Assembly: GCA_944326655.1 (NCBI GenBank)
Contig: CALVEX010000159.1
Span: 1-23,413, forward strand
Direction of reading: 5' to 3'
DNA length: 23,413 nucleotides
Source: Candidatus Gastranaerophilales bacterium
GTDB taxonomy: Bacteria; Cyanobacteriota; Vampirovibrionia; Gastranaerophilales; Gastranaerophilaceae
Part shown: positions 113 through 23,330 of the stretch, one piece after another
Layout of the letters: every line of letters starts with the position of its first letter
Numbering within the stretch: the first letter of the stretch is position 1
Notes under the pieces: generated by a model
What the model saw: only the letters and a program-made list of their open reading frames with translations
The model's database searches: none
Told to the model about the DNA's origin: nothing
Position numbers and translations under genes: made by a program

Positions 113-3100
113 TTATTTTAACTGATATAAAGTACATGTCTTTGTAAATTTATCTTTATTTGTCCAGCCGCCGTACAGATCCATATAAATTTCATCACAA
201 TCTATATCGCCGAGAAAAGAAACTTGTCTTATTTCTTGTTGTAAATCAGAAATTGGAACATCATTATAAGACCCGCTCATATAAACCGGAGTATTTTCAA
301 CACCGGTAATTTCTTGAGAAACTTTTGCCGCATAATCAGCCATCGCAGATCTAACCTGTACTCCTGTCGCATTTGAAGGTTTATATTTGTTATTAATTTC
401 TATATTATCAATTATAAAAGCAGGTTTTCCATTGTCATCTTTGATAAAATAACACAGAGCATTTCCTATAGTTTTGCCGGAAGTATTATCAACAAGCTCT
501 ATCATATTATAGGCAGTATCCATCACAAAGTGAGGCATTGCAGATCCATTTCCGCCTCCCATACCTATACAACAGGTCGAGTAATTTCCCTGGAAAATAT
601 CTTTTTGCGGATTTCTGTCCCACATTTTTATTGTCAAATCAAGTTTTCTTTCGGATTTTCCTTCTTGTACTGACGAAATATCATCTAATCTTTGATTAAG
701 ATGCTCTAAAATAGTAAGTGTATTTCGAGGTGTCTGGGCTCTTTTAGGATCGGGATTTGCGGCATTTCCCTGTGCGCGTTTCCATACCTGAGCAAGCTGT
801 CCCTGTTCAGAAGTATCTGATAACATTTCAATAAGTTCTTTTAATTTATTTTTATTAGATAAATATTCTTTAGGTATAATAAACTCATCTCCTTTAATGA
901 ATTTAGGAAATTGTTTTTTCAAAAATCCTTTAACAGGAGTTTGCATTAACATATTTATATCTTCCGATACCTGAGCTGCTATTTGTTCTATATGTTCCGC
1001 ATTTTTATCTTTTGATACAAAATGAATTTCATGTTCTTTTGAGGGGTGTAACCATTTTTCATAATTTAAACCTGATGTCTCAAACATATTACGTGTGTTT
1101 TCATTTGCTATGCCATATATATTAGATGTATTGTGGATAAATTGATTAAAATCAGGTTCTAAAGAACCGGCTTTCATGATATCATTGAAAGATAAATCAT
1201 TGCCTGAATTTATTTCTTTTGAAAGCAAATGAATATAATTCATATCCCAAGACAATAATTTATCTTTGGGAATAGATGCGATTTGAGTATCAGTCAAACC
1301 TGAATTTTTCATTATTTGTTGGCATAAATCTGCATTCAACTGCCCTACATCAACTTTTCCCTGATCTATCATAGATTGTATGCCATCAAATGACATATTG
1401 TTTGCTTTATATGCAGTGATTAAATCTATAAATTCAATTTTTTGTGTAGGCATAAACGGTTTGTTGTCTGTATTGCAGGATTCCGACAGATTTTTTAACA
1501 AAGACATTTCATCCGGGGAAAAATCGCGTAAAATATCTATATACTCATCTGCATCATCAAATCTCATTCTCAATAAATGATTTACTGCTTCTTTGTCAAA
1601 AATTTCAGAAGCTGCCATTAAACAGCAATAATTACTATCAACAAATTCTTCTACTTCATCTCTTGCAAGTTCCGGGGTTTCAAATTCGCCATTGACATAC
1701 CATTCAGGATTTTTTAGCATTTTTTGTTTTAGAGCCTTTACCTTTGAATCCAGTTCTACTAAATCCTTATTTTTTAGCATTTTTAAAACATTATCATTAC
1801 GCGTCCAACAAATATCATCAATAAGAGGTTGAATACGCTCATTCGGGAAATCTGGATTGCGGCATAATTCTCTTACAATGTCTATAATATCCTTGCCTTT
1901 ATTTATGTGGCGCAATATACCTTCTATGTGTTCTTTCGGGAAATCTGGATTGTTGCACAATTCTCTTGCTAACTCTATATTGTCTTTATTTGTGCAACCC
2001 AATAATATACCTTCTATGTGTTCATTCGGGAAATCTGGATTGTTGCATAATTCTCTTGCAAGATTTATATTGTCTTTATTTGTGTAAGCCAATATACCTC
2101 TTATTTGCTTTTTCGGGAAATCTGGATTGTTGCACAATTCTCTTGCAAGGTCAATAATATCCTTGTCTTCATATATGTCGAACATTATACCTTTTATGTC
2201 CTCTTTCGGGAAGTCAGGATTGTTACACATTTTTCTTGCAATGTCTATATTATCTTTATCTGTGAATAACAATATACCACGTATGCGCTCTTTCGAGAAA
2301 TCGCCATTGTACATATCTTTTACAAGATCACGACGCTGATATGCATAATCCATATTATTTTTATCTGAGTAGAATAATATATCGCGCATGTATTCATTTG
2401 GAAAATCCGGATCATTGTATAATTCTCTTGCAAACTCTATGTTATCTTTATTTATGCAACCCAATATATCTTTTATTTGCTTTTTCGGAAAATCCGGATT
2501 GTTACACATTTTTCTTGCAATGTCTATAACATCCTTATCTCTACCTGCTAATAACAATATATCTTTTATTTGCTTTTTCGGGAAATCTGGATTGTTACAC
2601 ATTTCTCTTGCAAACTCTATATTATCCTTATGTGTGTAACCCAATATACCTTTTATGTGTTCATTCGGGAAATCTGGATTGTTACAAATTTCTCTTGCAA
2701 ACTCTATGTTATCCTTATGTGTGCAACCCAATATACCTTTTATGTGTTCTTTCGGGAAATCTGGATTGTTGCACAATTCTCTTGCAAGATCTATATTACC
2801 CTTATTTGTGAAGTCCAAAATATTATTAGCATACTCTCCGCCAATTCCTCTAGCCTTAAGTGTTTCAGCAAGCTCATCTTTCATCTTTGCAAATGTTTCA
2901 TCGTCTATCTCGATTTTTGCTGTTTCCGGTGCAGAAAGCTGTGCATGCTCGGGCACGTCTAATTCTTTGCCCTGCCGCGTAATAGGTGTCCCTTCATTCA
3001 TATCCGTTTTTATTTGTTCTCGTATAACTTCCTGTGTTTCCTGAGTTCTTCCCTGTGAAGCACCTGAAGATGTTTCCAATGATTGTTGCACTCTATGATT

Positions 3101-4978
3101 TTCTTCCGATTGTTTAGCAAAGATATTTGCCTGCGCTTGCTGAGGCGTTTCAGGATGGAAGGTCAGAGCTTCGGGAGCTCCTTCCACTTTGTAGCCCTTT
3201 GTTCCAAGTAACAATACGCTCAGTGCAAGTTCATTATCATTCTTTGCTGTTACTATTACTTCTCCGTTTCTAGTTAAGGTATAGGTCCCGTTTTCTTGTT
3301 TTTCTACATTTACGTTATTTAGTTTTGCACCCTTATGTATTGCAGAACCTGCAAACATCATTCCGTAGTTCATAAGTCCGTTTTGTGACAGGGATTCTTG
3401 TATTGTCATATCGCTTGTTAATCTGTCGAATATAACATCTGCTGTTGTTTCTGTCCCTGTTCCGATGATTTTGGGGATTATACTTTTAAATATTTGAGGA
3501 TTTTTTGACAGGATTTTTGCTACGCTGTCTCCTACAGGGCCTGAGACATATGCACCGAAGGCTCCGTACATCATGCCGTTTTTCAATTCTTCCCAGGCTT
3601 CTTGACCGGTTTGTTCTGTTATTCCTTTTTTGCTTGTTGCATCGCTTACTATTGTCACTGCAGGGTTAAATGCTGCAGTTGCTGTAGTTGCTATGCCTTT
3701 TACAGCGGCATTACTTACCATGGCACCTGCCTTTGTACCGAATTTTGCACTTGCTAGCTGCATTGCTTTGGAACCCAAGTTTTGCATGGCTGTTGAGCCC
3801 ATGGCAAAGTATGATGCTGCTATTGTTGTACCAATTTCGATTACGGCAGCCTGCGTCTTCATGTTAGAAATATATTCATTAATTATTTCTTCCGAGTTAT
3901 AATTTCCCATTGCCTGCTTGTATGCAGACTTGTATTCTTGCTCCAGTGTATTTTTGTCTAAAGAATGTATCTGAGAGTCATATTCATTTTTAGCATCTGT
4001 GAGGAAGCTTTTTAGTTCCTGAACGAATTTCTTATCATCATTTTGAGCAATACTATTTAATTGGGATACGTATTGTTGAGCAAGCTCTCTGTTGTTTCCG
4101 ACATGGGGTAAGATGTGGAGCATTGCTGCTTTTCTGACATTAACGGGGGCTGCATTATCTATGTTCGATAGAGTATTTGAAATATTATCTGATAGGTTTT
4201 GATATGCGTTTAGAGTTTGGAGGTTTGTATCTGCTTTCTGAAGATTTTGAAATGCCTGTTCATTATAATCTATACCATAGAGTTCTTTGAAATTTTTATT
4301 AAATTCTTCTGGATTGTTTGTCGTATTCTTAAGTCTGATAATCCCGCCTATTTCATTGCTGATTGCCTCTCCATTTTCCCAGACTGTAACAAAGTCGTTA
4401 CGGCCTGTTATTTTATCCCAGGTATAGTTGCCTATTGATTGAAGCCCCTGTTGAACGGCATCAAATGAAACTTTACCTATGCCGTTGTAGTAGTTTGTAA
4501 GGTTATCTCCGGCATTCCCTGCTTGTTGGAATAATTTATCAGCAGCGAAAGCTCTTGTTTGTTGGGATTGTTGTTCTAATAATTGTTCCTGGGAGAGATT
4601 TTGTTTTTGTTCAGTTTTTGAAGCGGAAATGGGAGATGGCTGTTGTTGAGTTTGATGATTATTTTGTTCTAGTGTGAGAGTAATATCATCCAGATATGTG
4701 CCGTTGTCATAAGTATCATATTTCCCAAAACTGAATCCATTGCCAAAGATAGAAGTAGAATTGAATCTGGAGTTGTATGAGTCCTGCCCTTCTTTTGTGC
4801 CAAAAGCCCATTCTTCGAATTCATCGCGGGACAGAATTCCGTTTGCAAGCATTTGTGCGGCAACATCATATTTTGACATATCTTTTTTTGATATATATTC
4901 ATTGCTTCTGAGTTGATCCAGGTGTGCCATAGCATAATCATCAATTTTTTTAGATATTGAATCGTTTGTTCCTGACAT
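113..4978 (-). CDS. Giant (1621 aa) multi-domain protein. The N-terminal region is Q/N-rich and polar. A Gly/Ala-rich hydrophobic segment follows (aa ~380-520). The central part has about 11-12 tandem 30-aa repeats (NIEFARELCNNPDFPKEHIKGILGCTHKD). The C-terminal ~250 aa domain is Cys-containing (QGNYSTCCIGMGGGNGSAMPHF...). No signal peptide. Candidate secreted effector, toxin or adhesin-like protein.
   Basis: Single uninterrupted 4866-nt ORF on the minus strand. ATG at 4978 is preceded by GAAGGAAG, with in-frame stops upstream. Plus-strand ORFs inside it are short, repeat-derived artefacts. Repeat periodicity is visible at both protein and nucleotide level. Confidence 0.8.
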   Translation of the reverse strand: MSGTNDSISKKIDDYAMAHLDQLRSNEYISKKDMSKYDVAAQMLANGILSRDEFEEWAFGTKEGQDSYNSRFNSTSIFGNGFSFGKYDTYDNGTYLDDITLTLEQNNHQTQQQPSPISASKTEQKQNLSQEQLLEQQSQQTRAFAADKLFQQAGNAGDNLTNYYNGIGKVSFDAVQQGLQSIGNYTWDKITGRNDFVTVWENGEAISNEIGGIIRLKNTTNNPEEFNKNFKELYGIDYNEQAFQNLQKADTNLQTLNAYQNLSDNISNTLSNIDNAAPVNVRKAAMLHILPHVGNNRELAQQYVSQLNSIAQNDDKKFVQELKSFLTDAKNEYDSQIHSLDKNTLEQEYKSAYKQAMGNYNSEEIINEYISNMKTQAAVIEIGTTIAASYFAMGSTAMQNLGSKAMQLASAKFGTKAGAMVSNAAVKGIATTATAAFNPAVTIVSDATSKKGITEQTGQEAWEELKNGMMYGAFGAYVSGPVGDSVAKILSKNPQIFKSIIPKIIGTGTETTADVIFDRLTSDMTIQESLSQNGLMNYGMMFAGSAIHKGAKLNNVNVEKQENGTYTLTRNGEVIVTAKNDNELALSVLLLGTKGYKVEGAPEALTFHPETPQQAQANIFAKQSEENHRVQQSLETSSGASQGRTQETQEVIREQIKTDMNEGTPITRQGKELDVPEHAQLSAPETAKIEIDDETFAKMKDELAETLKARGIGGEYANNILDFTNKGNIDLARELCNNPDFPKEHIKGILGCTHKDNIEFAREICNNPDFPNEHIKGILGYTHKDNIEFAREMCNNPDFPKKQIKDILLLAGRDKDVIDIARKMCNNPDFPKKQIKDILGCINKDNIEFARELYNDPDFPNEYMRDILFYSDKNNMDYAYQRRDLVKDMYNGDFSKERIRGILLFTDKDNIDIARKMCNNPDFPKEDIKGIMFDIYEDKDIIDLARELCNNPDFPKKQIRGILAYTNKDNINLARELCNNPDFPNEHIEGILLGCTNKDNIELARELCNNPDFPKEHIEGILRHINKGKDIIDIVRELCRNPDFPNERIQPLIDDICWTRNDNVLKMLKNKDLVELDSKVKALKQKMLKNPEWYVNGEFETPELARDEVEEFVDSNYCCLMAASEIFDKEAVNHLLRMRFDDADEYIDILRDFSPDEMSLLKNLSESCNTDNKPFMPTQKIEFIDLITAYKANNMSFDGIQSMIDQGKVDVGQLNADLCQQIMKNSGLTDTQIASIPKDKLLSWDMNYIHLLSKEINSGNDLSFNDIMKAGSLEPDFNQFIHNTSNIYGIANENTRNMFETSGLNYEKWLHPSKEHEIHFVSKDKNAEHIEQIAAQVSEDINMLMQTPVKGFLKKQFPKFIKGDEFIIPKEYLSNKNKLKELIEMLSDTSEQGQLAQVWKRAQGNAANPDPKRAQTPRNTLTILEHLNQRLDDISSVQEGKSERKLDLTIKMWDRNPQKDIFQGNYSTCCIGMGGGNGSAMPHFVMDTAYNMIELVDNTSGKTIGNALCYFIKDDNGKPAFIIDNIEINNKYKPSNATGVQVRSAMADYAAKVSQEITGVENTPVYMSGSYNDVPISDLQQEIRQVSFLGDIDCDEIYMDLYGGWTNKDKFTKTCTLYQLK
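1840..2840 (-). repeat. Tandem ~90-bp (30-codon) repeat array inside the giant CDS, about 11-12 units with high unit-to-unit nucleotide identity.
   Basis: The string ttcgggaaatctggattgtt[g/a]cacaattctcttgcaa recurs at ~1843, 1936, 2026, 2113, 2206, 2293, 2400, 2485, 2576, 2666 and 2753 (period 87-93 bp). The translated unit is ...ARELCNNPDFPKEHIKGILGCTHKDNIEF... Confidence 0.85.
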
Positions 4979-5222: not shown

Positions 5223-5233
5223 GGGGGGGGGGG
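5223..5233. repeat. Homopolymeric G11 tract (C11 on the sense strand of the giant gene), ~245 nt upstream of its ATG. Candidate slipped-strand phase-variation tract.
   Basis: Printed sequence ttgag + 11 g + atttc. The sense-strand context AAGAGGA..TTTTGTT..ATGG..(23 nt)..C11 resembles the uORF/poly-C module of the pilin cassettes (AAGAGGAG TTTTGTT ATGG ..28 nt.. C10). Confidence 0.6.
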
Positions 5234-9941: not shown

Positions 9942-11177
9942 TTAAAAAGGGTAATCATCTTTTATCTGCCATCCGTCACGCATAATTTTTGCAGCGCATG
10001 TGTATCCGCCGGATACTGCTTTAGCGTTGCAAGCCCAGGATGCTGTACTATTAATAGTGTTATCAGGCCAATCGTATCCGTAAGGTTTTAACATTTTGTC
10101 AGCCAGAATAAAGAAAAACAAATCCTTTCCTGCAACATTTGGTCCTTTATCAGAACCATTTATATCAATAAAAAATGCTGCATTATTTATTGATGTTGAA
10201 TAGAGTCCAATACAGACACCGTCTACGGTTTTAAAAGATGCAGTCCCCGGATTTATGGGGGAGGAGAGCCAGACTCCTGTCAACCATTCATACTGTGTAT
10301 TTTCATAAAACATTTTCCCGTTATAACACATATTTTCTGCATAGTCTCCGGGCGGATATGTTTTATCAATTTTAAATTCCGGTGCCAAATAATTATTAAC
10401 TATTTTTTCGGGGGAATTCCAATCCTGCCAGTTTTCCATTTCTCCATGTTTAATTTCTGCCATTATAATGGCCTGATTTGTCAGTGTGTAAGCTCGTTTT
10501 AATTTTGTAACAGTTTCATCCTTTTGATGTTTTGTAATTAATGTTGGTAAAGTCATCGCCGCAACCACGCCGATTATGCCGAGGGTGATTAGGACTTCTG
10601 CGAGTGTAAATGCGGCTCGACGTTGACCGTTCAGCAGGACTACGCGCGTAGCGCCATCTGCGATGGTAAAGGTAGCAAGTTTTTTCTTAAGTGAAGAAGT
10701 TAATAAGTCAATAGGTGAATAAGTTCGTTTCAGGGAATTGATATAGTCCCCTCTCCCCGGCGAATTGACCTTCGCGCGGGAGAGTACTCTTATACTCTTC
10801 CCTCTCCCCCTGCGGGAGAGGGTTAGGGTGAGGGGTGTTTGTTTGAAACCCATCCTAACCTTCCCTAATAAGGGAAGGAATTCTATGTCCCCTCCCTTGA
10901 GGGGAGGGGAATACAAGGGGAGGGTGATGCTCTTAAGTGAATAAGTTAATAGGTCAATAAGTGAATAAGTTCTTATCGGCAGCGTACCGCTGCAAAAGAT
11001 TACCGAGGAAATTTCACTATTATGCGATTGCGACGGTCGTTTCACACGCTGGCAATGACACGTATCTTGTGAGCTTTGCTCACAGATACCGGCATACCTT
11101 ATTACCCTCCTATCTTCCGATCTTCCATTAATGGCCTGCCCTCCTGCCTTCTTGAACTCTTGCCTTCTGTTTGTCAC
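9942..11177 (-). CDS. Prepilin-type (type IV pilin-like / pseudopilin-like) protein, paralog 1. The class-III signal motif AAFTLAEVLITLGIIGVVAAMTLP lies at codon ~189 of an open frame that starts at GTG 11177. The C-terminal ~220 aa globular part has the DINGSDKGPNVAGKDLFFF motif. The true 5' end is unresolved (see findings).
   Basis: Canonical FTLxE + hydrophobic helix. There is no in-frame ATG/GTG/TTG within 60 codons upstream of the motif. The frame stays open for ~188 codons back to a GTG whose UG overlaps the UGA stop of an RBS-equipped upstream ORF. Paralogous to 14013..15209. Confidence 0.6.
   Translation of the reverse strand: MTNRRQEFKKAGGQAINGRSEDRRVIRYAGICEQSSQDTCHCQRVKRPSQSHNSEISSVIFCSGTLPIRTYSLIDLLTYSLKSITLPLYSPPLKGGDIEFLPLLGKVRMGFKQTPLTLTLSRRGRGKSIRVLSRAKVNSPGRGDYINSLKRTYSPIDLLTSSLKKKLATFTIADGATRVVLLNGQRRAAFTLAEVLITLGIIGVVAAMTLPTLITKHQKDETVTKLKRAYTLTNQAIIMAEIKHGEMENWQDWNSPEKIVNNYLAPEFKIDKTYPPGDYAENMCYNGKMFYENTQYEWLTGVWLSSPINPGTASFKTVDGVCIGLYSTSINNAAFFIDINGSDKGPNVAGKDLFFFILADKMLKPYGYDWPDNTINSTASWACNAKAVSGGYTCAAKIMRDGWQIKDDYPF
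10688..11170 (-). repeat. Conserved hairpin-rich upstream cassette of pilin paralog 1 (shared with paralog 2 and partly with 23001..23330). It contains four polypyrimidine-loop-polypurine hairpins (10749-10785, 10800-10822, 10859-10878, 10889-10908) bracketed by a ~45-bp direct repeat (10690-10735 and 10925-10972, cttaagtgaataagttaataggtcaataagtgaataagttc). It also contains the palindrome TGTGAGCTTTGCTCACA (11068-11084).
   Basis: Direct sequence comparison with 14750-15205 (modules are nearly identical, with mosaic indels). Confidence 0.75.
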
Positions 11178-11221
11178 GCTTTCGGGGGGGGGGCGATTCT
11201 CAGCTTCTTATCTTTAACCAT
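11174..11221 (-). CDS. Upstream ORF of pilin paralog 1 encoding MVKDKKLRIAPPPKA (15 codons). It contains the C10 tract (encoding APPP). Its UGA stop overlaps the GUG start of the long pilin frame (gcGUGAca).
   Basis: AAGAGGAG-N7-ATG on the minus strand. The 10-G tract is confirmed independently by the plus-strand track ORF 11076..11297 (..CHAFGGGAILSF..). One extra C fuses this ATG in frame with the 9942..11177 frame. Confidence 0.5.
   Translation of the reverse strand: MVKDKKLRIAPPPKA
11184..11193. repeat. Homopolymeric G10 (C10 on the sense strand) inside the upstream ORF of pilin paralog 1. Candidate phase-variation tract.
   Basis: ttc + 10 g + cgatt, read directly from the sequence. Confidence 0.8.
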
Positions 11222-11255
11222 AACAAAACTCCTCTTAATTTCCAATAACATTTTT

Positions 11256-11284
11256 ATTATTTATGATTTTTCAGGTTTTGTCAA
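11256..11284 (-). promoter_or_regulatory. Sigma70-like promoter for pilin paralog 1 (TTGACA-N17-AATAAT), ~55 nt upstream of the upstream-ORF ATG.
   Basis: Minus strand reads tatTGACAaaacctgaaaaatcataAATAATaaaaatg. A perfect -35 hexamer. Confidence 0.45.
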
Positions 11285-11375: not shown

Positions 11376-14012
11376 ATGCCTAATTTTGAAAAGTTTACTA
11401 ATTATTCTCAGGAACTTTTGAATTCTGCAGGTGCAATTATGCAAGAACACAGAAATTCCGAGATGCAGCCCGAGCATATAATGCTTGCTATGATTAAGGA
11501 CAGCGGTGCGATAAAAGATTATTTGACCGAGTTAAAACTTTTAAATCAAGGTTTTATAGATAAAATTGTTTCCGTTGTTAATTCTTTCCCGACAATATCC
11601 GGGCCGCCTTCCGGGCAGGTATTTTTGTCTACCCAGACTTACAGACTGTTAGATTTGGCAGGTCAGCAGGCAGAAGAATTTAAGGATGAATTTATAAGCG
11701 CTGAATCAATCCTGCTTGCTATGACACGATTAGATAACAGCCCTATACAACTATTGTTGAAAAATTACAATGTTGATTCAAATAAAGTTTTAAATGTAAT
11801 GAAAAAAATAAGAGGTAATAAGAAAGTGGATAATAAAAATGCTGAAGAAAATATGAAAGCACTTGAAAAATATTCAACTGATTTAACAGCTCTTGCAAGA
11901 AAGGGAAAATTAGACCCTGTAATAGGCAGAGATGAAGAAGTCAGAAGAATTATTCAGGTATTAAACAGAAGAACAAAAAACAATCCTGTTTTGATAGGTG
12001 AGCCGGGAGTCGGTAAAACTGCAATAGTTGAAGGACTTGCCCAGCGTATTGTGCGCGGTGATGTTCCTGAAAGTTTAAAAGATGTTAAACTTGTTTCTCT
12101 TGATATGGGAGCACTTGTTGCAGGGGCTAAGTTCAGAGGCGAGTTTGAAGAACGTTTAAAAGCAGTATTGAAAGAGGTTGAAGATTCAAACGGCGAAATT
12201 GTAATGTTTATTGATGAGTTGCATACAGTTGTTGGTGCAGGTGCAACAGAAGGTTCAATGGATGCAGGAAACCTCTTGAAACCAATGCTTGCCCGTGGTG
12301 TTTTGAGAACAATCGGTGCTACAACAATTAATGAATATCGTAAATATATAGAAAAAGACCCTGCTTTGGAAAGACGTTTCCAGCCTGTTATGGTTGGTGA
12401 GCCCTCTGTGGAGGATACAATTTCTATCCTCAGAGGTTTAAAAGAAAAATATGAAGTTCACCATGGTATAAGAATTTTAGACAGTGCATTAATTGCTGCT
12501 GCAAAATTGTCTGACAGATATATAACTGACAGATTTCTCCCAGATAAAGCAATTGATTTGATTGATGAGGCCGCATCATCTTTGCGTATCGAAATAGATT
12601 CTATGCCCGAAGAAATTGATAAAATGATGCGTCAGAAAATCCAGCTTGAAATTGAAAGAGAAGCCCTTAAAAAAGAGGTTGACCCCTCCCCGAAATCTGA
12701 GATTTCGACCCTCCCTCAAGGGGAGGGTACTACAGAAACCAAAATTGCAGACCTTACTAAACATATAACAGATTTAGAGGGCAAAATTTCAAAATTAAAA
12801 GCTCAATGGGAACAAGAAAAGGCTTCAATTACAGGTGAAGCAGGTATTAAAGAAGAAATCGAAAAAGTTAAAAATAAAATTGAAGAGGCAGAACGGAATA
12901 CCGATTTGCAGACAGCTGCTGAACTTAAATATGGCAGACTGCTTGAGCTTGAAAAGCAATTAAAGGCTGTGCAGAATAAAGAAAAAACAGATAATAAATT
13001 GCTTAAAGAAGAAATAGACGATGAAGACATTGCAAATGTTGTAAGTAAATGGACGGGAATTCCGGTTAATAAACTCGTAGAAAGTGAAAAGCAAAAACTT
13101 CTTAATATGGAAGAAATATTGCATAAGCGTCTTGTCGGTCAGGAAGAAGCTGTTGATACGGTTGCAGATGCTATCCGTCGTGCGCGTTCAGGCCTAAAAG
13201 ACCCGAAACGCCCGATAGGTACCTTCTTATTCTTAGGGCCTACAGGGGTTGGAAAAACAGAGCTTGCAAAATCTCTTGCGGAATTTATGTTTAACGATGA
13301 AGATGCGCTTATACGTATTGATATGTCCGAGTATATGGAAAAACATAACGTTTCTAGATTAGTCGGTGCTCCTCCGGGATATGTCGGCTATGATGAAGGC
13401 GGTCAGTTGACTGAGGCTGTCAGACGTAAACCTTATTCGGTTGTTCTTTTTGATGAAATTGAAAAGGCTCATCCGGATGTATTCAATATTATGCTTCAAA
13501 TCTTTGATGATGGGCGATTAACTGATTCAAAGGGAAGAACTGTTGATTTTAAAAATACATTAATCATTATGACATCAAACATCGGAAGCGACATAATCCT
13601 TGAAAATACTTTAAATTCTCTGGGTTCAAAGCAGAATTTTGAGGATACTAAAGAAAAAGTTCTTGAAGTTTTGAGAAGCAGGTTTAAACCCGAATTTTTA
13701 AACAGAATAGATGAAACGATATTCTTTAGAGCCTTGAATATGCAGGATTTAACAAAAATTGTCGATATTCAAATGGAGTATTTAAGAAAATTGTTAAAAG
13801 ATCAGGAAATCGACTTTGAAATAACTGATGATGCCAAAGAATTTCTTGCAACCCGCGGCTTTAACCCTGTTTACGGTGCAAGACCATTAAAACGTGTCAT
13901 AAGACAGTTAATTGAAAACCCGTTATCAAAACAAATTTTGGCCCAGAAATTCCTGCGCGGCGACAAGGTTATCATTGATGTTGATAACGATGAAATTGTT
14001 TTCAAAAAATAA
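11376..14012 (+). CDS. clpB: Chaperone ClpB (Hsp100/AAA+ disaggregase), 878 aa, carrying an in-frame ~16-aa insertion in the M-domain.
   Basis: Both AAA+ modules ([37 protein letters not shown]), the M-domain coiled coil and the C-terminal [10 protein letters not shown] motif. Collinear with E. coli ClpB except for the extra [17 protein letters not shown] segment. Confidence 0.95.
12681..12729 (+). repeat. In-frame palindromic hairpin element inside clpB. It combines cgaaatc-tga-gatttcg with accctccc-tcaag-gggagggt, and belongs to the same CCCTCCC-loop-GGGGAGGG family found in the pilin cassettes.
   Basis: Sequence gacccctccccgaaatctgagatttcgaccctccctcaaggggagggtac. Its reverse complement (gtaccctcccc TTGA gggagggtc) is near-identical to the cassette hairpin gtcccctccc TTGA ggggagggg at 10889-10908 and 14766-14785. 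Confidence 0.7.
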
Positions 14013-15209
14013 TTACGGATTAATACATTGCCAGTAAGTTTTTGATGTATCTGTTTCACATGTGTTTAAAATTGCCCATTTTGCACATGTGAAACCCTGG
14101 TAATGTTCTTTCTCAGATGTAAAACAGCCCCCAAAGCGTGTATATGGTACTACGTTGTTATTTTTGTCTATGTTGAATGAAAATAAATCGTGTCCCAGAC
14201 GGTTAGGTCCTTTGGCCGGGCCGTTGATATCAATGTGATACCCTCTCGCTCCCCAAGGACTCATAAATATAAGAATACCACTATTAGTTAAAATAGATTT
14301 TTGAGTAAGTGAGTCCGCGTCTATATGTGCATATGTCCCTTTAACAAAAGAGTCATAACTTTTTTCCCTGCGCCCTGTGCAGTCTAAGTAATATTTTGTG
14401 CACAGTTGAGCATTTGGTATATACTTTATAAGTTTGTCTAAATGATTTGAATATGCTGTTCTCATATCAGATTCAGAATTTAAATCTTCATACAGCATCG
14501 GATAATCATTCTGCATAAGCAGATGAGCATTTTGAATTAATGAATAAGCTTTTTTGAACTGTGTTTCCAAAACATGCCGTTTGTAATTTGTAATAACCAC
14601 AGGTAAAGTCATCGCCGCAACCACTCCGATAATTCCGAGGGTGATGAGGACCTCTGCCAATGTAAACGCGGCCTGACGTTGACCATTCGGCATGGCTACG
14701 CGCGTAGCGCACTCAGCCAAAGTGAATGCAGGTATCAACTGAACGCGTTCCATGTCCCCTCCCTTGAGGGGAGGGGAATTCAAGGGGAGGGTGATGCTCT
14801 TAAGTGAATAAGTTAATAAGTCAATAGGTGAATAAGTTCGTTTCGAGAAGGTGTTCTGCCTCTCTTTGGAAAACTCTTGTTCAAATATTTTAAAGTTTAA
14901 TAAATATTGTGGCAGAGGGCGAAAAAGAGGGTTGGGGTGAGGTTCTATTATGTTCTGCGATTGCGACGGTCGTTCCACTCCCTCGCAATGACATGTATTT
15001 TGTGAGCTTTGCTCACCGATTTCAGCATACCCTCCTACCTTCCTATCTTCCAATCTTCCTGAATCAGCCCTCTCTCTAACTATCTCCCGAGGAGAGAAAA
15101 CGCGTTTCAACTTCCTTATACAGGAAAGGAAGTTATTTTTACGCGGGCTCTGCCCGCCGATAATAGCCTGACCTCCTGCCTTCTTGCCCTCCTGACTTCT
15201 TTTTGTCAC
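14013..15209 (-). CDS. Prepilin-type (type IV pilin-like) protein, paralog 2. MPNGQRQAAFTLAEVLITLGIIGVVAAMTLP lies at codon 173, with an in-frame ATG at 14693 just before the motif. The C-terminal part has the DINGPAKGPNRLGHDLFSF motif. The frame is open back to a GTG near 15209 that is coupled to an upstream ORF, as in paralog 1.
   Basis: Same architecture as 9942..11177. The stop codon abuts the clpB stop (convergent, zero spacer). A partial duplicate FTLAE motif (IPAFTLAECATRVAMPNGQRQAAFTLAEV) is present. Confidence 0.65.
   Translation of the reverse strand: MTKRSQEGKKAGGQAIIGGQSPRKNNFLSCIRKLKRVFSPREIVRERADSGRLEDRKVGGYAEIGEQSSQNTCHCEGVERPSQSQNIIEPHPNPLFRPLPQYLLNFKIFEQEFSKERQNTFSKRTYSPIDLLTYSLKSITLPLNSPPLKGGDMERVQLIPAFTLAECATRVAMPNGQRQAAFTLAEVLITLGIIGVVAAMTLPVVITNYKRHVLETQFKKAYSLIQNAHLLMQNDYPMLYEDLNSESDMRTAYSNHLDKLIKYIPNAQLCTKYYLDCTGRREKSYDSFVKGTYAHIDADSLTQKSILTNSGILIFMSPWGARGYHIDINGPAKGPNRLGHDLFSFNIDKNNNVVPYTRFGGCFTSEKEHYQGFTCAKWAILNTCETDTSKTYWQCINP
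14750..15205 (-). repeat. Conserved hairpin-rich upstream cassette of pilin paralog 2. It contains hairpin 14766-14785 (cccctccc-ttga-ggggaggg), hairpins 15083-15095 and 15111-15132, the gaataagt module 14797-14850 and the palindrome TGTGAGCTTTGCTCAC (15001-15016).
   Basis: Module-by-module similarity to 10688-11170. An additional ~140-nt segment is absent from paralog 1. Confidence 0.75.
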
Positions 15210-15253
15210 GCTTTCGGGGGGGGGGCGATTCTCAGCTTCTTATCTTTTTTCAT
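15206..15253 (-). CDS. Upstream ORF of pilin paralog 2 (MKKDKKLRIAPPPKA if the tract is C10). It has the same RBS, poly-C tract and UGA/GUG overlap as paralog 1.
   Basis: AAAAGGAG-N7-ATG on the minus strand. The 3' coordinate depends on the tract length (9 as I read the printed line; 10 implied by the frame of the supplied ORF 14013..15209). Confidence 0.4.
   Translation of the reverse strand: MKKDKKLRIAPPPKA
15217..15225. repeat. Homopolymeric G tract (9-10 nt) inside the upstream ORF of pilin paralog 2.
   Basis: I read gctttc + 9 g + cgatt. The adjacent block reads cctgcccttcttg. The ORF-track translation MTKRSQEGKKAGG requires cctgccttcttg instead, so the G run is most probably 10 and one of my two run counts is off by one. 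Confidence 0.6.
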
Positions 15254-15287
15254 AACAAAACTCCTTTTAATTTCCAATAACATATTT

Positions 15288-15317
15288 ATTATGAGCCAAT
15301 TTAATAGTATTTGTCAA
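15288..15317 (-). promoter_or_regulatory. Sigma70-like promoter for pilin paralog 2 (TTGACA-N18-CATAAT), positionally equivalent to the promoter of paralog 1.
   Basis: Minus strand reads ggaTTGACAaatactattaaattggctCATAATaaatatg. Confidence 0.45.
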
Positions 15318-15531
15318 TCCTTTTCATACGTATTGTTTATTACCGTTTCTTGTGTTCTGTCTTTATAAAAATCTAACCGTCTGCTGCCTTTTTCTTGTTC
15401 TTCGTGTAAATCCGTTCCAGATCAAAGTTATTTAAGTCTTTATATATCCAGGAATTTTGAATTTTAATATTTCCATCATCGGTTAATTCATTAATGGTAA
15501 TTTACCCTGGTTGATTTTCTATTTTATATCT

Positions 15532-16362
15532 TCACAGCCAGATATTAAATTCTATATTGTCTTTTCCCGGAATAATTTCTACCTCTTTGCCCCTGAATGC
15601 TATTCCGCAATAGTTAAAAAACTGAGCATATTTTTTCCCTTTGTATTTAAGAATGTCAAAGCCGTTTATTGCCAGATGGCTGTTTATAGTAATTTTTTTG
15701 CCTTCAAAACTTTTTGTATAGAATTTTTTTAAGTCGATTTGTGCGTTGTCGTATGCCCATCCGTTTTCGCTTACATAATCAACAAGACCGTAAACAGGTG
15801 TGCCTTTTTTAATATATAATTTACCGTTTTTATATACATCCTTCGCGGTTTCAAATTTAATTTTGTCTCCGACTTCTATTTCATTATGGCTGGTCGAAAT
15901 CAGCTGTGCCGGAATAATTTTTACAGGCGTATCTTCTGAATTTATGTAGTTGCTGAAAAATACAACAAGCTCTGTTTTTCCGGGTTTTAAAATTACTTCA
16001 CCGCCTCTTATAAGGTAAGTTGCGGGTGCAATCCCGTTATTTGCAAGCTCCTGATATTTTGCGTGCTCGCCGCCTTTAACGTAAATTTCCCCGTTGAGCC
16101 TCTTCCCTGATTGTTTGTATTGGAAATTATTGATTAAAATAGAGGCCTGTTCACCAGCAAAGCCGTTAGGGTTTAATTCTTTAATCAGTCCTGTTACAAT
16201 TTCTCCGCTTTTTACATCTTTAAAGTCTACATAATCCCCTTCGTGAAGATTTTTATTTGCAGTGGAAATTTTTTCAACGGGTGTTATTGTAACAGGAACT
16301 TCTTCCGCAATGGAAGAAAGTCCTGTTAACAATATTGAAGTTAAAATTAATCTTTTTATCAT
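15532..16362 (-). CDS. Secreted hypothetical protein (276 aa) with a cleavable signal peptide (MIKRLILTSILLTGLSSIA/EE). Translationally coupled to the upstream M48 peptidase gene.
   Basis: Its start ATG overlaps the TAA stop of the peptidase gene (TAATG). Codon usage is consistent with neighbours. No recognisable catalytic motif. Confidence 0.6.
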   Translation of the reverse strand: MIKRLILTSILLTGLSSIAEEVPVTITPVEKISTANKNLHEGDYVDFKDVKSGEIVTGLIKELNPNGFAGEQASILINNFQYKQSGKRLNGEIYVKGGEHAKYQELANNGIAPATYLIRGGEVILKPGKTELVVFFSNYINSEDTPVKIIPAQLISTSHNEIEVGDKIKFETAKDVYKNGKLYIKKGTPVYGLVDYVSENGWAYDNAQIDLKKFYTKSFEGKKITINSHLAINGFDILKYKGKKYAQFFNYCGIAFRGKEVEIIPGKDNIEFNIWL

Positions 16363-23000: not shown

Positions 23001-23330
23001 ATGTGTAATACAGTCATTCTGTACCTCGGATTGTGCTTTGTGTTTCAGAAGTTAGTTGCAAGAAGTTCGGAAGGCAGGAAGGCAAGAGGTCAAGCCGTTA
23101 TCGGCGGGCAAGGCCCTCGTAATGACAATTACAAGTTTAACTTTTGCAGCGGTACGCTGCCTATACGAACTTCTCGTCCTAACGTCTTTACGTCTTATCG
23201 TCTGAAACAATACGAACCTCACCCCAGCCTCTCCTTGTAAAGGAGAGGGGACGATATCAGCTCGCCGAAACGAACTTATTCACCTAAACTCGTTTCACTC
23301 TTCACTCATCACAGTTCACTTAATATTATT
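23001..23330 (+). repeat. Third, degraded copy of the pilin upstream cassette (plus-strand orientation). It lacks the promoter, upstream ORF and poly-C module, has a frame-breaking stop, and retains one hairpin (cctctcctt-gtaa-aaggagagg, 23228-23249) and a diverged gaataagt module. A new gene starts at ~23405 (AGAGGG..ATGAAAA).
   Basis: Same-frame peptide similarity (VARSSEGRKARGQAVIGGQ...FCSGTLPIRT against paralogs 1 and 2). Nucleotide similarity to 11120-11170 and 15120-15200, including synonymous third-position differences. Confidence 0.6.

Follow-up and report, generated by a model that had tools for sequence, protein, structure and literature searches.

A ten-base C run ahead of a long, stop-free prepilin leader in a Gastranaerophilales bacterium: a probable phase-variation switch

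How is a pilin gene read when its start signals open a different reading frame? The question is raised by two pilin genes, here called paralog 1 and paralog 2, in a stretch of 23,413 nt from a Candidatus Gastranaerophilales bacterium (the whole of contig CALVEX010000159.1 of assembly GCA_944326655.1, positions 1 to 23,413; the whole stretch is referred to as the window). MetK encoded in the window shares a 90%-identity cluster with Candidatus Scatousia excrementipullorum, whose genus NCBI classes as Bacteria incertae sedis; GTDB places it in Gastranaerophilales, which are non-photosynthetic relatives of cyanobacteria. In both genes, a promoter-like site, a Shine-Dalgarno (SD) sequence and an ATG are followed by a short frame that crosses a run of ten C and soon stops, while the pilin is encoded in another frame behind a long leader. 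An earlier note on this DNA had taken the arrangement for a switch. We consider it probable, judging from the sequences, that paralog 2 undergoes slipped-strand phase variation within a greatly extended prepilin leader that is translated from ATG 15253. All features described lie on the minus strand of the window unless a plus sign is given.

The putative switch module, the pilin frame and the run in other strains

The elements that the earlier note had listed ahead of paralog 2 were all found: a putative promoter TTGACA-N18-CATAAT, an SD seven nucleotides before an ATG, and a short upstream open reading frame (uORF) (Table 1). Paralog 1 shares this module of promoter, SD, short frame and homopolymer. 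By consensus scoring, the putative promoter of paralog 2 is the top-scoring promoter-like site in 13900-15600. The coding strand reads ATG AAA AAA GAT AAG AAG CTG AGA ATC G, ten C, and then GAAAGCGTGA; the run begins 28 nt past the A of ATG 15253, in the 5' coding region, and is longer than the ~8 nt taken as the minimum for such a homopolymer. The earlier note had counted nine G at 15217-15226 on the plus strand, while there are ten, at 15216-15225; the block reads cctgccttc plus ten G, as it had allowed, and the translation given for the open reading frame (ORF) 14013..15209 is right. It had also supposed that the two paralogs are in different tract states. This was not borne out, since the two runs alike have ten C and need one more base to be in frame.

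In both paralogs the frame of the SD-ATG reads M[K/V]KDKKLRIAPPPKA and ends three codons past the run. The pilin frame lies at offset 2 to the ATG frame, and one extra C would join the two in either gene; with 11 C, the SD-ATG frame of paralog 2 runs on into the 398-codon pilin frame. A change of one base toggles the encoded product, with C10 giving a peptide of 15 amino acids (aa) and the allele one base longer giving the 413-aa protein P0121; C10 and C11 at the L029/L028 locus and G10 and G11 in L012 and L046, described below, behave alike. The stop of the short frame (TGA, 15208-15206) overlaps the GTG (15209-15207) of the long ORF as GTGA, and this overlap is present in both paralogs. Three sites of the window have runs of at least ten C or G (four matches, overlaps included), whereas 100 shuffles had none, which is far above chance.

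The gene behind the leader possesses the marks of a type IV prepilin. The prepilin motif named in the earlier note corresponds to the Pfam N_methyl domain at residues 178-201 of ORF 14013..15209 (residues 186-209 in paralog 1); PF07963 scores 23.8 bits (cut-off 21.2) and TIGR02532 19.4 bits (cut-off 16.3), with cleavage predicted between A and FTLAEVLITLGIIGVVAAMTLP. Phe+1 and Glu+5 of FTLAEV are followed by ~20 hydrophobic residues. The AlphaFold model of the 217-aa mature part (pLDDT 83) comprises a 52-residue N-terminal helix plus a sheet, and a Foldseek search against the PDB gave no significant match. Close orthologues, with 82% and 70% identity, have the ordinary leaders MKNFTPAFTLAEI and MKRGFTLAEV. 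Known type IV prepilin leaders measure ~5-30 residues. Paralog 2 has no such short leader after its start, the motif beginning at residue 178-181 of the GTG ORF and 196 residues from the SD-ATG; it would have one only if the internal ATG 14753 or 14693 were the real start. No prepilin peptidase or pilus assembly genes were found within the window, and a T2SSE-type ATPase gene lies near clpB in the related strain L023. No record was returned by exact look-up for P0001, for P0010 or for the 276-aa neighbour protein in the window.

A conventional short-leader pilin without a run (MRRFKGFTLTELMVAMAVIG...) was seen at 6061-6738 of contig L046, which also has an in-frame long-leader pilin, so both kinds coexist in one genome.

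We then compared the runs of related strains, using consensus assemblies, several of them of low coverage. The 90% cluster of the paralog 2 product includes P0121, which starts MKKDKKLRIAPPPESVTNRSQ... and derives from contigs L010 and L011. These belong to separate, independent ENA assemblies, and in the mature part of paralog 2 they depart from the window at a single one of 657 nt. In place of the G-C10 of the window they have G-C-T-C9, which is longer by one base, in frame, and encodes the 413-aa fusion. In paralog 1, the run is C10 in L010 as well as in the window. Between these two the mature part of paralog 1 shows 11 synonymous and 2 non-synonymous differences, which argues that the pilin genes are not decaying.

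Pilin loci next to clpB were retrieved through clpB itself and are thus blind to tract state. In a related species, another switch stands ahead of the clpB-upstream pilin, with MMYREALNC before the C run. Its run has ten C in 14 instances, drawn from about a dozen assemblies, and would yield a 17-aa peptide there; the one C11 instance, in L028, gives a 491-aa fusion. The pilin downstream of clpB has C10 in two strains and CCCTCCCCCC, of the same length and out of frame, in five of seven. In a third group of strains, L023-L027 (~2855-2870, minus strand), the clpB-upstream pilin is deleted, and a TTGACA promoter-like box, the fragment agagaagctttg and the C run are left. This remnant run without a pilin measures 9, 10, 9, 8 and 9 in the five samples, which indicates that such homopolymer runs are intrinsically unstable.

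The same layout was found at further loci. The switch ..NIKNF-Gn-CACTCTAGG occurs as MEALKNIKNF-G10 out of frame (L012/L013) and as MKVLRNIKNF-G11 in frame (L046); others begin MKEFCTRN-G9, MKGLKNLFNL...ACF-G10, MKILKNLLNL...ACF-G10, MLYSKALRIA-C10 and MLKNEAMTGFKTL-G9; and L047 has the promoter, SD and MVKDKK start of paralog 1 with an interrupted C5TC4 run, in frame. At least six different short N-terminal peptides, each followed by a C or G run of 9-11, precede pilins (eight long-leader loci plus L037 and L039), and three pilin loci on viral contigs were used only as extra examples. What recurs across these loci is the architecture, namely an SD-ATG, 8-25 codons and a 9-11-nt C/G run, and not the sequence. 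The polymorphism of tract length between strains is modest, with C10 dominant. Nine of the ten distinct out-of-frame loci are exactly one base short, and the correction needed at L039 is the opposite one. A locus that is in frame with ten C is implied by the protein P0010 (MFKDKKLRIIPPPERV...), and hence ten may simply be the preferred run length. The comparison of assemblies thus upholds the reading of the run as a switch, in so far as runs differ in length or are interrupted between strains, changing the joining of the ATG and pilin frames. A scan of public genomes for the switch GATAAGAAGCTGAGAATC gave only 9 chance matches in unrelated taxa, a JGI metagenome scan for the switch plus the run gave 0 matches, and a protein search with the in-frame switch peptide gave no candidates.

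From the sharing between the paralogs the earlier note had argued that the module is the selected part. This argument holds only in part. It is better founded on the recurrence of the architecture with unrelated sequences and with C or G runs, and on a frame that is open from run to pilin. However, the conservation between the paralogs is not specific to the switch. The switch block is 91% identical over 132 nt, and other leader blocks reach 91% over 105 nt, 96.6% over 88 nt and 97.9% over 47 nt; being as similar or more so, they show that paralog conservation does not single out the switch. This similarity may reflect gene conversion.

The clusters of P0014 and P0032 show that gene callers give very different products for one pilin locus across assemblies. 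The called products include 204-aa fragments starting MTLPTL inside the hydrophobic helix, as well as forms of 351, 356 and 424 aa, set apart by entire leader modules (an in-frame block of 68 codons). The annotation of these pilin genes is unreliable.

The extended leader and its hairpin modules

In the pilin frame, the leader of paralog 2 is free of stop codons. The other two forward frames contain 12 and 13, each reverse frame contains 8-10, and not one of 5000 shuffled sequences was stop-free. Across eight distinct loci, the stretch from run to motif measures 154-252 codons (462-756 nt) and has 45-51% G+C, compared with 37% in the genome. All eight have no stop in the pilin frame and 4-22 stops in each of the other five frames, with 0 of 5000 shuffles stop-free at each locus; and the open pilin frame closes a few codons upstream of the run. 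As the stretch is stop-free in the pilin frame only, translation from the switch ATG appears to be required. The large indels between the two window cassettes that the earlier note had pointed out measure 99, 66 (net) and 189 nt, all of them multiples of 3, and the blocks common to both cassettes have 85-98% identity.

G+C-rich hairpin modules make up the leader. They recur in pilin leaders at other loci, and among ~100 kb of sequence from related loci their DNA-level matches are found only in pilin leaders. Two module variants, GTGAGC-AAA-GCTCAC and GCGGGC-AGA-GCCCGC, are two compensatory pairs apart. Between the window and L010, the leader of paralog 2 shows 14 differences in 585 nt, 12 of which are clustered in 80 nt; at several of the clustered sites L010 agrees with paralog 1, which suggests gene conversion between the copies. 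The differences are too few for the ratio of non-synonymous to synonymous polymorphism (pN/pS) of the leader to be informative. The fold of the whole leader RNA gave z = -1.8 (20 shuffles), consistent with local hairpins and no convincing global structure. Rfam returned only a tRNA at the gathering threshold; in 14600-15400 nothing came near any gathering score, and thus no known riboswitch or leader RNA lies there.

In the leader of paralog 1, 7 of ~25 nt differ just ahead of the cleavage site between the window (10600-10625) and L010 (6566-6591), giving LLNGQRRAAF and LPNRQHRVAF, and the remaining 583 nt are identical. To judge from the alignment, this looks like a short conversion patch.

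With the leader of paralog 2 as a protein query, a search of 1.84 billion cluster representatives gave 14 matches (E <= 0.001), among which each that reaches the cleavage motif is a prepilin-type protein, one of 721 aa. Among the 119 best pilin homologues, called leaders have at least 40 residues in 86 and at least 100 in 49, and extend up to 266. In short-leader homologues, too, GGG or PPP stands within a few codons of the start, for example MSGGGNSVAFTLAEV and MPPPEKIVIYRGFKGFTLAEV, which fits a run-in-leader design that would predate the expansion of the leader. We infer that an ancestral run in a short leader was later inflated by in-frame modules, which would be tolerable because the leader is cleaved off.

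Just ahead of the motif, a first AFTLAE followed by G-A-T-[RH]-V stands ~22 codons before the real AFTLAEV, with a counterpart at 10639-10673 in paralog 1. The arrangement AFTLAEGAT[RH]V...RRxAFTLAEV is present in 43 of the 119 homologues, sometimes in 2-3 tandem copies. In L037 (~1300-1500), an insert of ~90 nt lies exactly at the position of the palindrome. Duplication, target-site duplication and a recombination scar are candidate origins of this pre-motif segment.

Table 1. Features of the two pilin cassettes in the window
Feature	Coordinates	Strand	Remarks
Paralog 2, promoter-like TTGACA-N18-CATAAT	15288..15317 (-35 15317-15312; -10 15293-15288)	-	Consensus match 11/12; putative
Paralog 2, Shine-Dalgarno AAAAGGAG	15261..15268	-	7 nt ahead of ATG 15253
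Paralog 2, short frame from the SD-ATG (MKKDKKLRIAPPPKA, then stop)	15206..15253	-	As assembled
Paralog 2, homopolymer run	15216..15225	-	C10 in the coding sense, G10 when read on the plus strand
Paralog 2, extended leader	14667..15209	-	181 codons without a stop, counted from GTG 15209 up to the residue preceding Phe+1
Paralog 2, GC-rich hairpin modules of the leader	15157-15143, 15134-15109, 15097-15083, 15016-15002, 14989-14960, 14777-14755	-	
Paralog 2, weak promoter-like site inside the leader	14915..14887	-	9/12
Paralog 2, hairpin TCCCCTCCC-CTCAA-GGGAGGGGA	14751..14777	-	SD-like 3' arm; in-frame ATG 14753-14751
Paralog 2, pre-motif	14695..14729	-	First AFTLAE copy 14729-14712, then 14-nt perfect palindrome GCTACGCGCGTAGC 14708-14695
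Paralog 2, in-frame ATG (MPNGQRQAAFTLAEV)	14691..14693	-	Without SD
Paralog 2, mature pilin	14013..14666	-	217 aa from Phe+1 (FTLAEVLITLGIIGVVAAMTLP...); stop 14015-14013
Paralog 1, same architecture	9942..11284	-	ORF 9942..11177; pilin end 9942
Paralog 1, promoter-like TTGACA-N17-AATAAT	11284..11256	-	Consensus match; putative
Paralog 1, SD AAGAGGAG	11236-11229	-	Ahead of ATG 11221
Paralog 1, C10 run	11193-11184	-	Exactly 10; frame relation as in paralog 2
Paralog 1, uORF stop	11176-11174	-	Then leader

Some observations concern other parts of the window. The third homopolymer (5223-5233; 11 G on the plus strand, 11 C on the minus strand) is intergenic, ~245 nt upstream of the ORF of a 1621-aa protein (113..4978, minus strand). 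Around it we found neither an SD-ATG switch module nor a promoter-like site spanning it, and it may be a separate variable tract. The 1621-aa protein contains, at 1837-2820, about a dozen tandem repeats of 29-31 residues (ARELCNNPDFPKEHIKGIL...) with a DNA period of 87-93 nt, and has no significant Pfam match. At 23001-23320 (plus strand) there is a degenerate copy of the pilin-leader modules, with matches of 84-100% to both leaders; it has stop codons, no homopolymer run and no pilin behind it, and a new gene begins at the contig end. ClpB (clpB, 11376..14012, plus strand) has 878 aa, compared with 865 aa in relatives of 96% identity. Its gene carries an in-frame insert of 13-14 codons in the coiled-coil region (12678-12740), and the hairpin of the insert DNA, ACCCTCCC-TCAA-GGGGAGGGT, resembles the leader hairpin 14777-14755.

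The proposed phase variation and the competing explanations

In the explanation that we favour, paralog 2, like paralog 1, would be a type IV prepilin gene whose true start is the SD-ATG (15253), followed by about nine codons, the C run, ~180 repeat-derived leader codons, the cleavage site between A and FTLAEV, and the 217-aa pilin. The run, which the earlier note had assigned to a separate upstream ORF, would then lie inside the coding region of a prepilin leader of ~196 codons. Slipped-strand mispairing would alter its length. At C10, ribosomes would stop three codons past the run without reaching the pilin frame, and both paralogs would be OFF, or almost OFF. A gain of one base, to 11 C or to an equivalent length, would join the ATG to the pilin frame. 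The product would then be a prepilin whose leader has ~196 residues, the ON state; the fused state is present in related strains. Prepilin peptidase would presumably remove the leader. Since it is discarded, the leader would tolerate in-frame gain, loss and exchange of hairpin modules, barring stops and frameshifts, and this tolerance would make it long, modular, fast-changing and always open. More speculatively, the hairpins of a leader left untranslated in the OFF state may block internal initiation, for example by sequestering GGGAGGGG before ATG 14753.

Several points weigh against this explanation. First, the out-of-frame length is strikingly constant, with C10 in 14 of the 15 instances of one switch and nine of ten loci one base short, while free switching would be expected to spread more. 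Second, the interrupted CCCTCCCCCC is out of frame in five of seven strains at one locus, which looks like locking OFF or expression by another route, and the lone C11 case, in an NCBI assembly, is possibly a homopolymer miscall. Third, the leader of paralog 2 contains two in-frame ATGs (14753, with its SD-like element, and 14693) and a weak promoter-like site, and the GTGA overlap at the uORF stop could allow reinitiation in the C10 state. Fourth, we know of no precedent for the cleavage of a leader of ~190 residues by prepilin peptidase, and a literature search for one found none; nor did literature searches yield anything on long leaders of prepilins or on phase variation by homopolymers in Melainabacteria. 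Moreover, as the comparison was made on consensus assemblies, heterogeneity within populations can only be presumed.

A related account, to which we give little credence, regards the hairpin leader of 150-250 codons as a functional part of the switch and not as tolerated ballast: it would be a translation-dependent gate that holds the pilin silent except when ribosomes come through from the switch ATG. Slippage by -1, ribosomal or transcriptional, would decode the one-base-short run at a low, fixed rate, with rare heritable ON switching in addition. If this were true, each of the many pilin paralogues would be made in small fixed amounts, and prepilin peptidase would accept leaders ~10x longer than any described.

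Slippage could also be the whole explanation, though this seems unlikely to us. The one-base-short length would then be the working state, and a -1 ribosomal slip on C_CCC_CCC (G_GGG_GGG elsewhere), or a polymerase adding a base, would set a low level of pilin with no change of the DNA. It is the uniform one-base-short state that keeps this reading alive: nine of ten out-of-frame loci need the same correction, offset 2 being equal to a -1 shift, and C10 is kept in 14 of 15 instances of one switch, whereas the remnant run without a gene drifts over 8-10. In addition, the zero frame ends 3-5 codons past the run, as at known frameshift sites, and the C run is formally a slippery heptamer, with C_CCC_CCC in the run and the pilin frame at -1, although this is trivially true of any homopolymer. 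However, no stimulatory hairpin or SD-like element is conserved at a constant close spacing behind the run; the sequences after the run are unrelated between loci, and the first strong hairpin of paralog 2 comes only ~58 nt past the run. L039 needs the opposite correction, and the in-frame alleles C11, G11, C-T-C9 and C5TC4, which would overproduce pilin under slippage, do exist. CCCTCCCCCC has lost most of the slippery run and still persists in five strains. Bacterial transcriptional slippage, too, is documented mainly for A/T runs.

Expression of paralog 2 might instead be independent of the tract, with ATG 14753 or 14693 as the start, possibly under a promoter within the leader, or with reinitiation at the GTG that the uORF stop overlaps; the upstream part would be a pile-up of former 5' ends. 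We regard this as improbable as well. The case for it begins with ATG 14753 (MERVQLIPAFTLAE...), which the earlier note had missed and which is a possible internal start by its sequence context, since the SD-like GGGAGGGG stands 4 nt ahead of it. The same unit as the hairpin 14777-14755 directly abuts the mature pilin in P0008 (...GGDMERVQLIPAFTLAEVLITLG), which uses this MERVQLIPAFTLAEV unit directly as a short leader, and close orthologues work with leaders of 4-7 residues. The weak promoter-like site within the leader and the GTGA overlap of both paralogs also point in this direction. But the SD-like element is the 3' arm of a 9-bp G+C hairpin and is buried in it, and paralog 1 has ATA for ATG at the site equivalent to 14753, with no ATG, GTG or TTG within ~85 codons of the motif. 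ATG 14693 was correctly reported in the earlier note as lacking an SD and as peculiar to paralog 2, paralog 1 reading CTG CTG AAC at its site. The GTGA overlap is absent at L012, L021, L029 and L030. Above all, internal initiation leaves unexplained why 462-756 nt are stop-free in exactly the pilin frame, up to the run, at eight of eight loci, and why the indels are multiples of 3.

It is very improbable that the out-of-frame runs are miscounts of assembly or sequencing, or that frameshifts have turned the genes into pseudogenes. Errors readily arise in homopolymers of 10-11, and several assemblies have only 2-8x coverage according to their contig names; against this, the C10 of paralog 1 is found both in the NCBI window and in the independent ENA assembly, the C10 of the clpB-upstream switch recurs in 14 instances from about a dozen assemblies, and the in-frame allele of L010/L011 differs by a T and not by the count alone. 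A pseudogene would hardly keep ~400 codons open past the run, and the 11 synonymous versus 2 non-synonymous differences of the mature part point to purifying selection. The idea that the short ORF is a regulatory leader peptide, whose APPP just before the stop would control downstream expression by EF-P-dependent Pro-Pro-Pro stalling, was rejected as most improbable, because equivalent switches at other loci use G runs and hence encode GGG, no stalling motif; conservation concerns the homopolymer and not proline; and the open pilin frame is left unexplained. A G-quadruplex was rejected too, since a single run cannot form one.

Known systems and biological meaning

The closest parallel to the proposed phase variation is pilC of Neisseria gonorrhoeae, where frameshifts in a poly-G run of the signal-peptide coding region switch the product on and off (PMC5354566). 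As in pilC, a G/C homopolymer lies few codons past the start of a pilus-related gene, within the sequence for an N-terminal leader that is cleaved off. Unlike pilC, the gene here encodes the pilin, whose signal is of class III (prepilin) and not of the Sec type, 150-250 leader codons separate the run from the cleavage site, and putative switches of this kind are carried by many paralogues throughout the lineage. In Campylobacter jejuni, Haemophilus and Neisseria, contingency loci are genes for surface structures with 8-11 G/C in a run near the 5' end of the coding region. They resemble the present loci in being many and independent in each genome, and in that consensus assemblies mix in-frame and out-of-frame lengths; the host here, however, is an uncultured, non-photosynthetic gut relative of cyanobacteria, and the out-of-frame lengths are strongly biased to one base short. 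In fim of Bordetella pertussis and hif of Haemophilus influenzae, a repeat tract near the start of the fimbrial gene, between -35 and -10, acts on transcription. The position near a fimbrial gene start and the on/off variation are alike, whereas the run here is 25 nt downstream of the start codon and would act on the reading frame.

The modules of the leader recall the Rickettsia palindromic elements (RPEs), in-frame palindromic repeats in protein-coding genes (PMC10969869). In both cases short palindromic modules lie inside ORFs without breaking them, as does the in-frame hairpin insert of clpB. RPEs are ~150 bp long and scattered over unrelated genes, whereas the modules here measure 20-100 nt, are stacked many deep and, apart from the one similar clpB hairpin, lie in prepilin leaders; they are in-frame, repeated and palindromic, but dispersal over many unrelated genes was not found, either in the protein search with the leader of paralog 2 or in the ~100 kb of related loci. 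With canonical type IV prepilins the two paralogs share Phe+1, Glu+5, the hydrophobic helix and basic residues just before the site, and the leader of paralog 2 differs in its length of 196 residues from the ATG.

If the proposed phase variation is true, the long-held assumption that prepilin leaders have to be short becomes testable, as these genes appear to need the translation of 150-250 codons that are discarded. Such leaders would be a natural example of a coding region selected only for the absence of stops and frameshifts, and would be useful for studying how palindromic repeats colonise genes. Gene callers mis-start or truncate genes of this kind, placing the start at the GTG or at internal ATGs, or calling 204-aa fragments. 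An uncultured gut lineage would vary its pilus repertoire by many independent homopolymer switches, a strategy known mainly from mucosal pathogens, which would here be legible directly from metagenomic reads.

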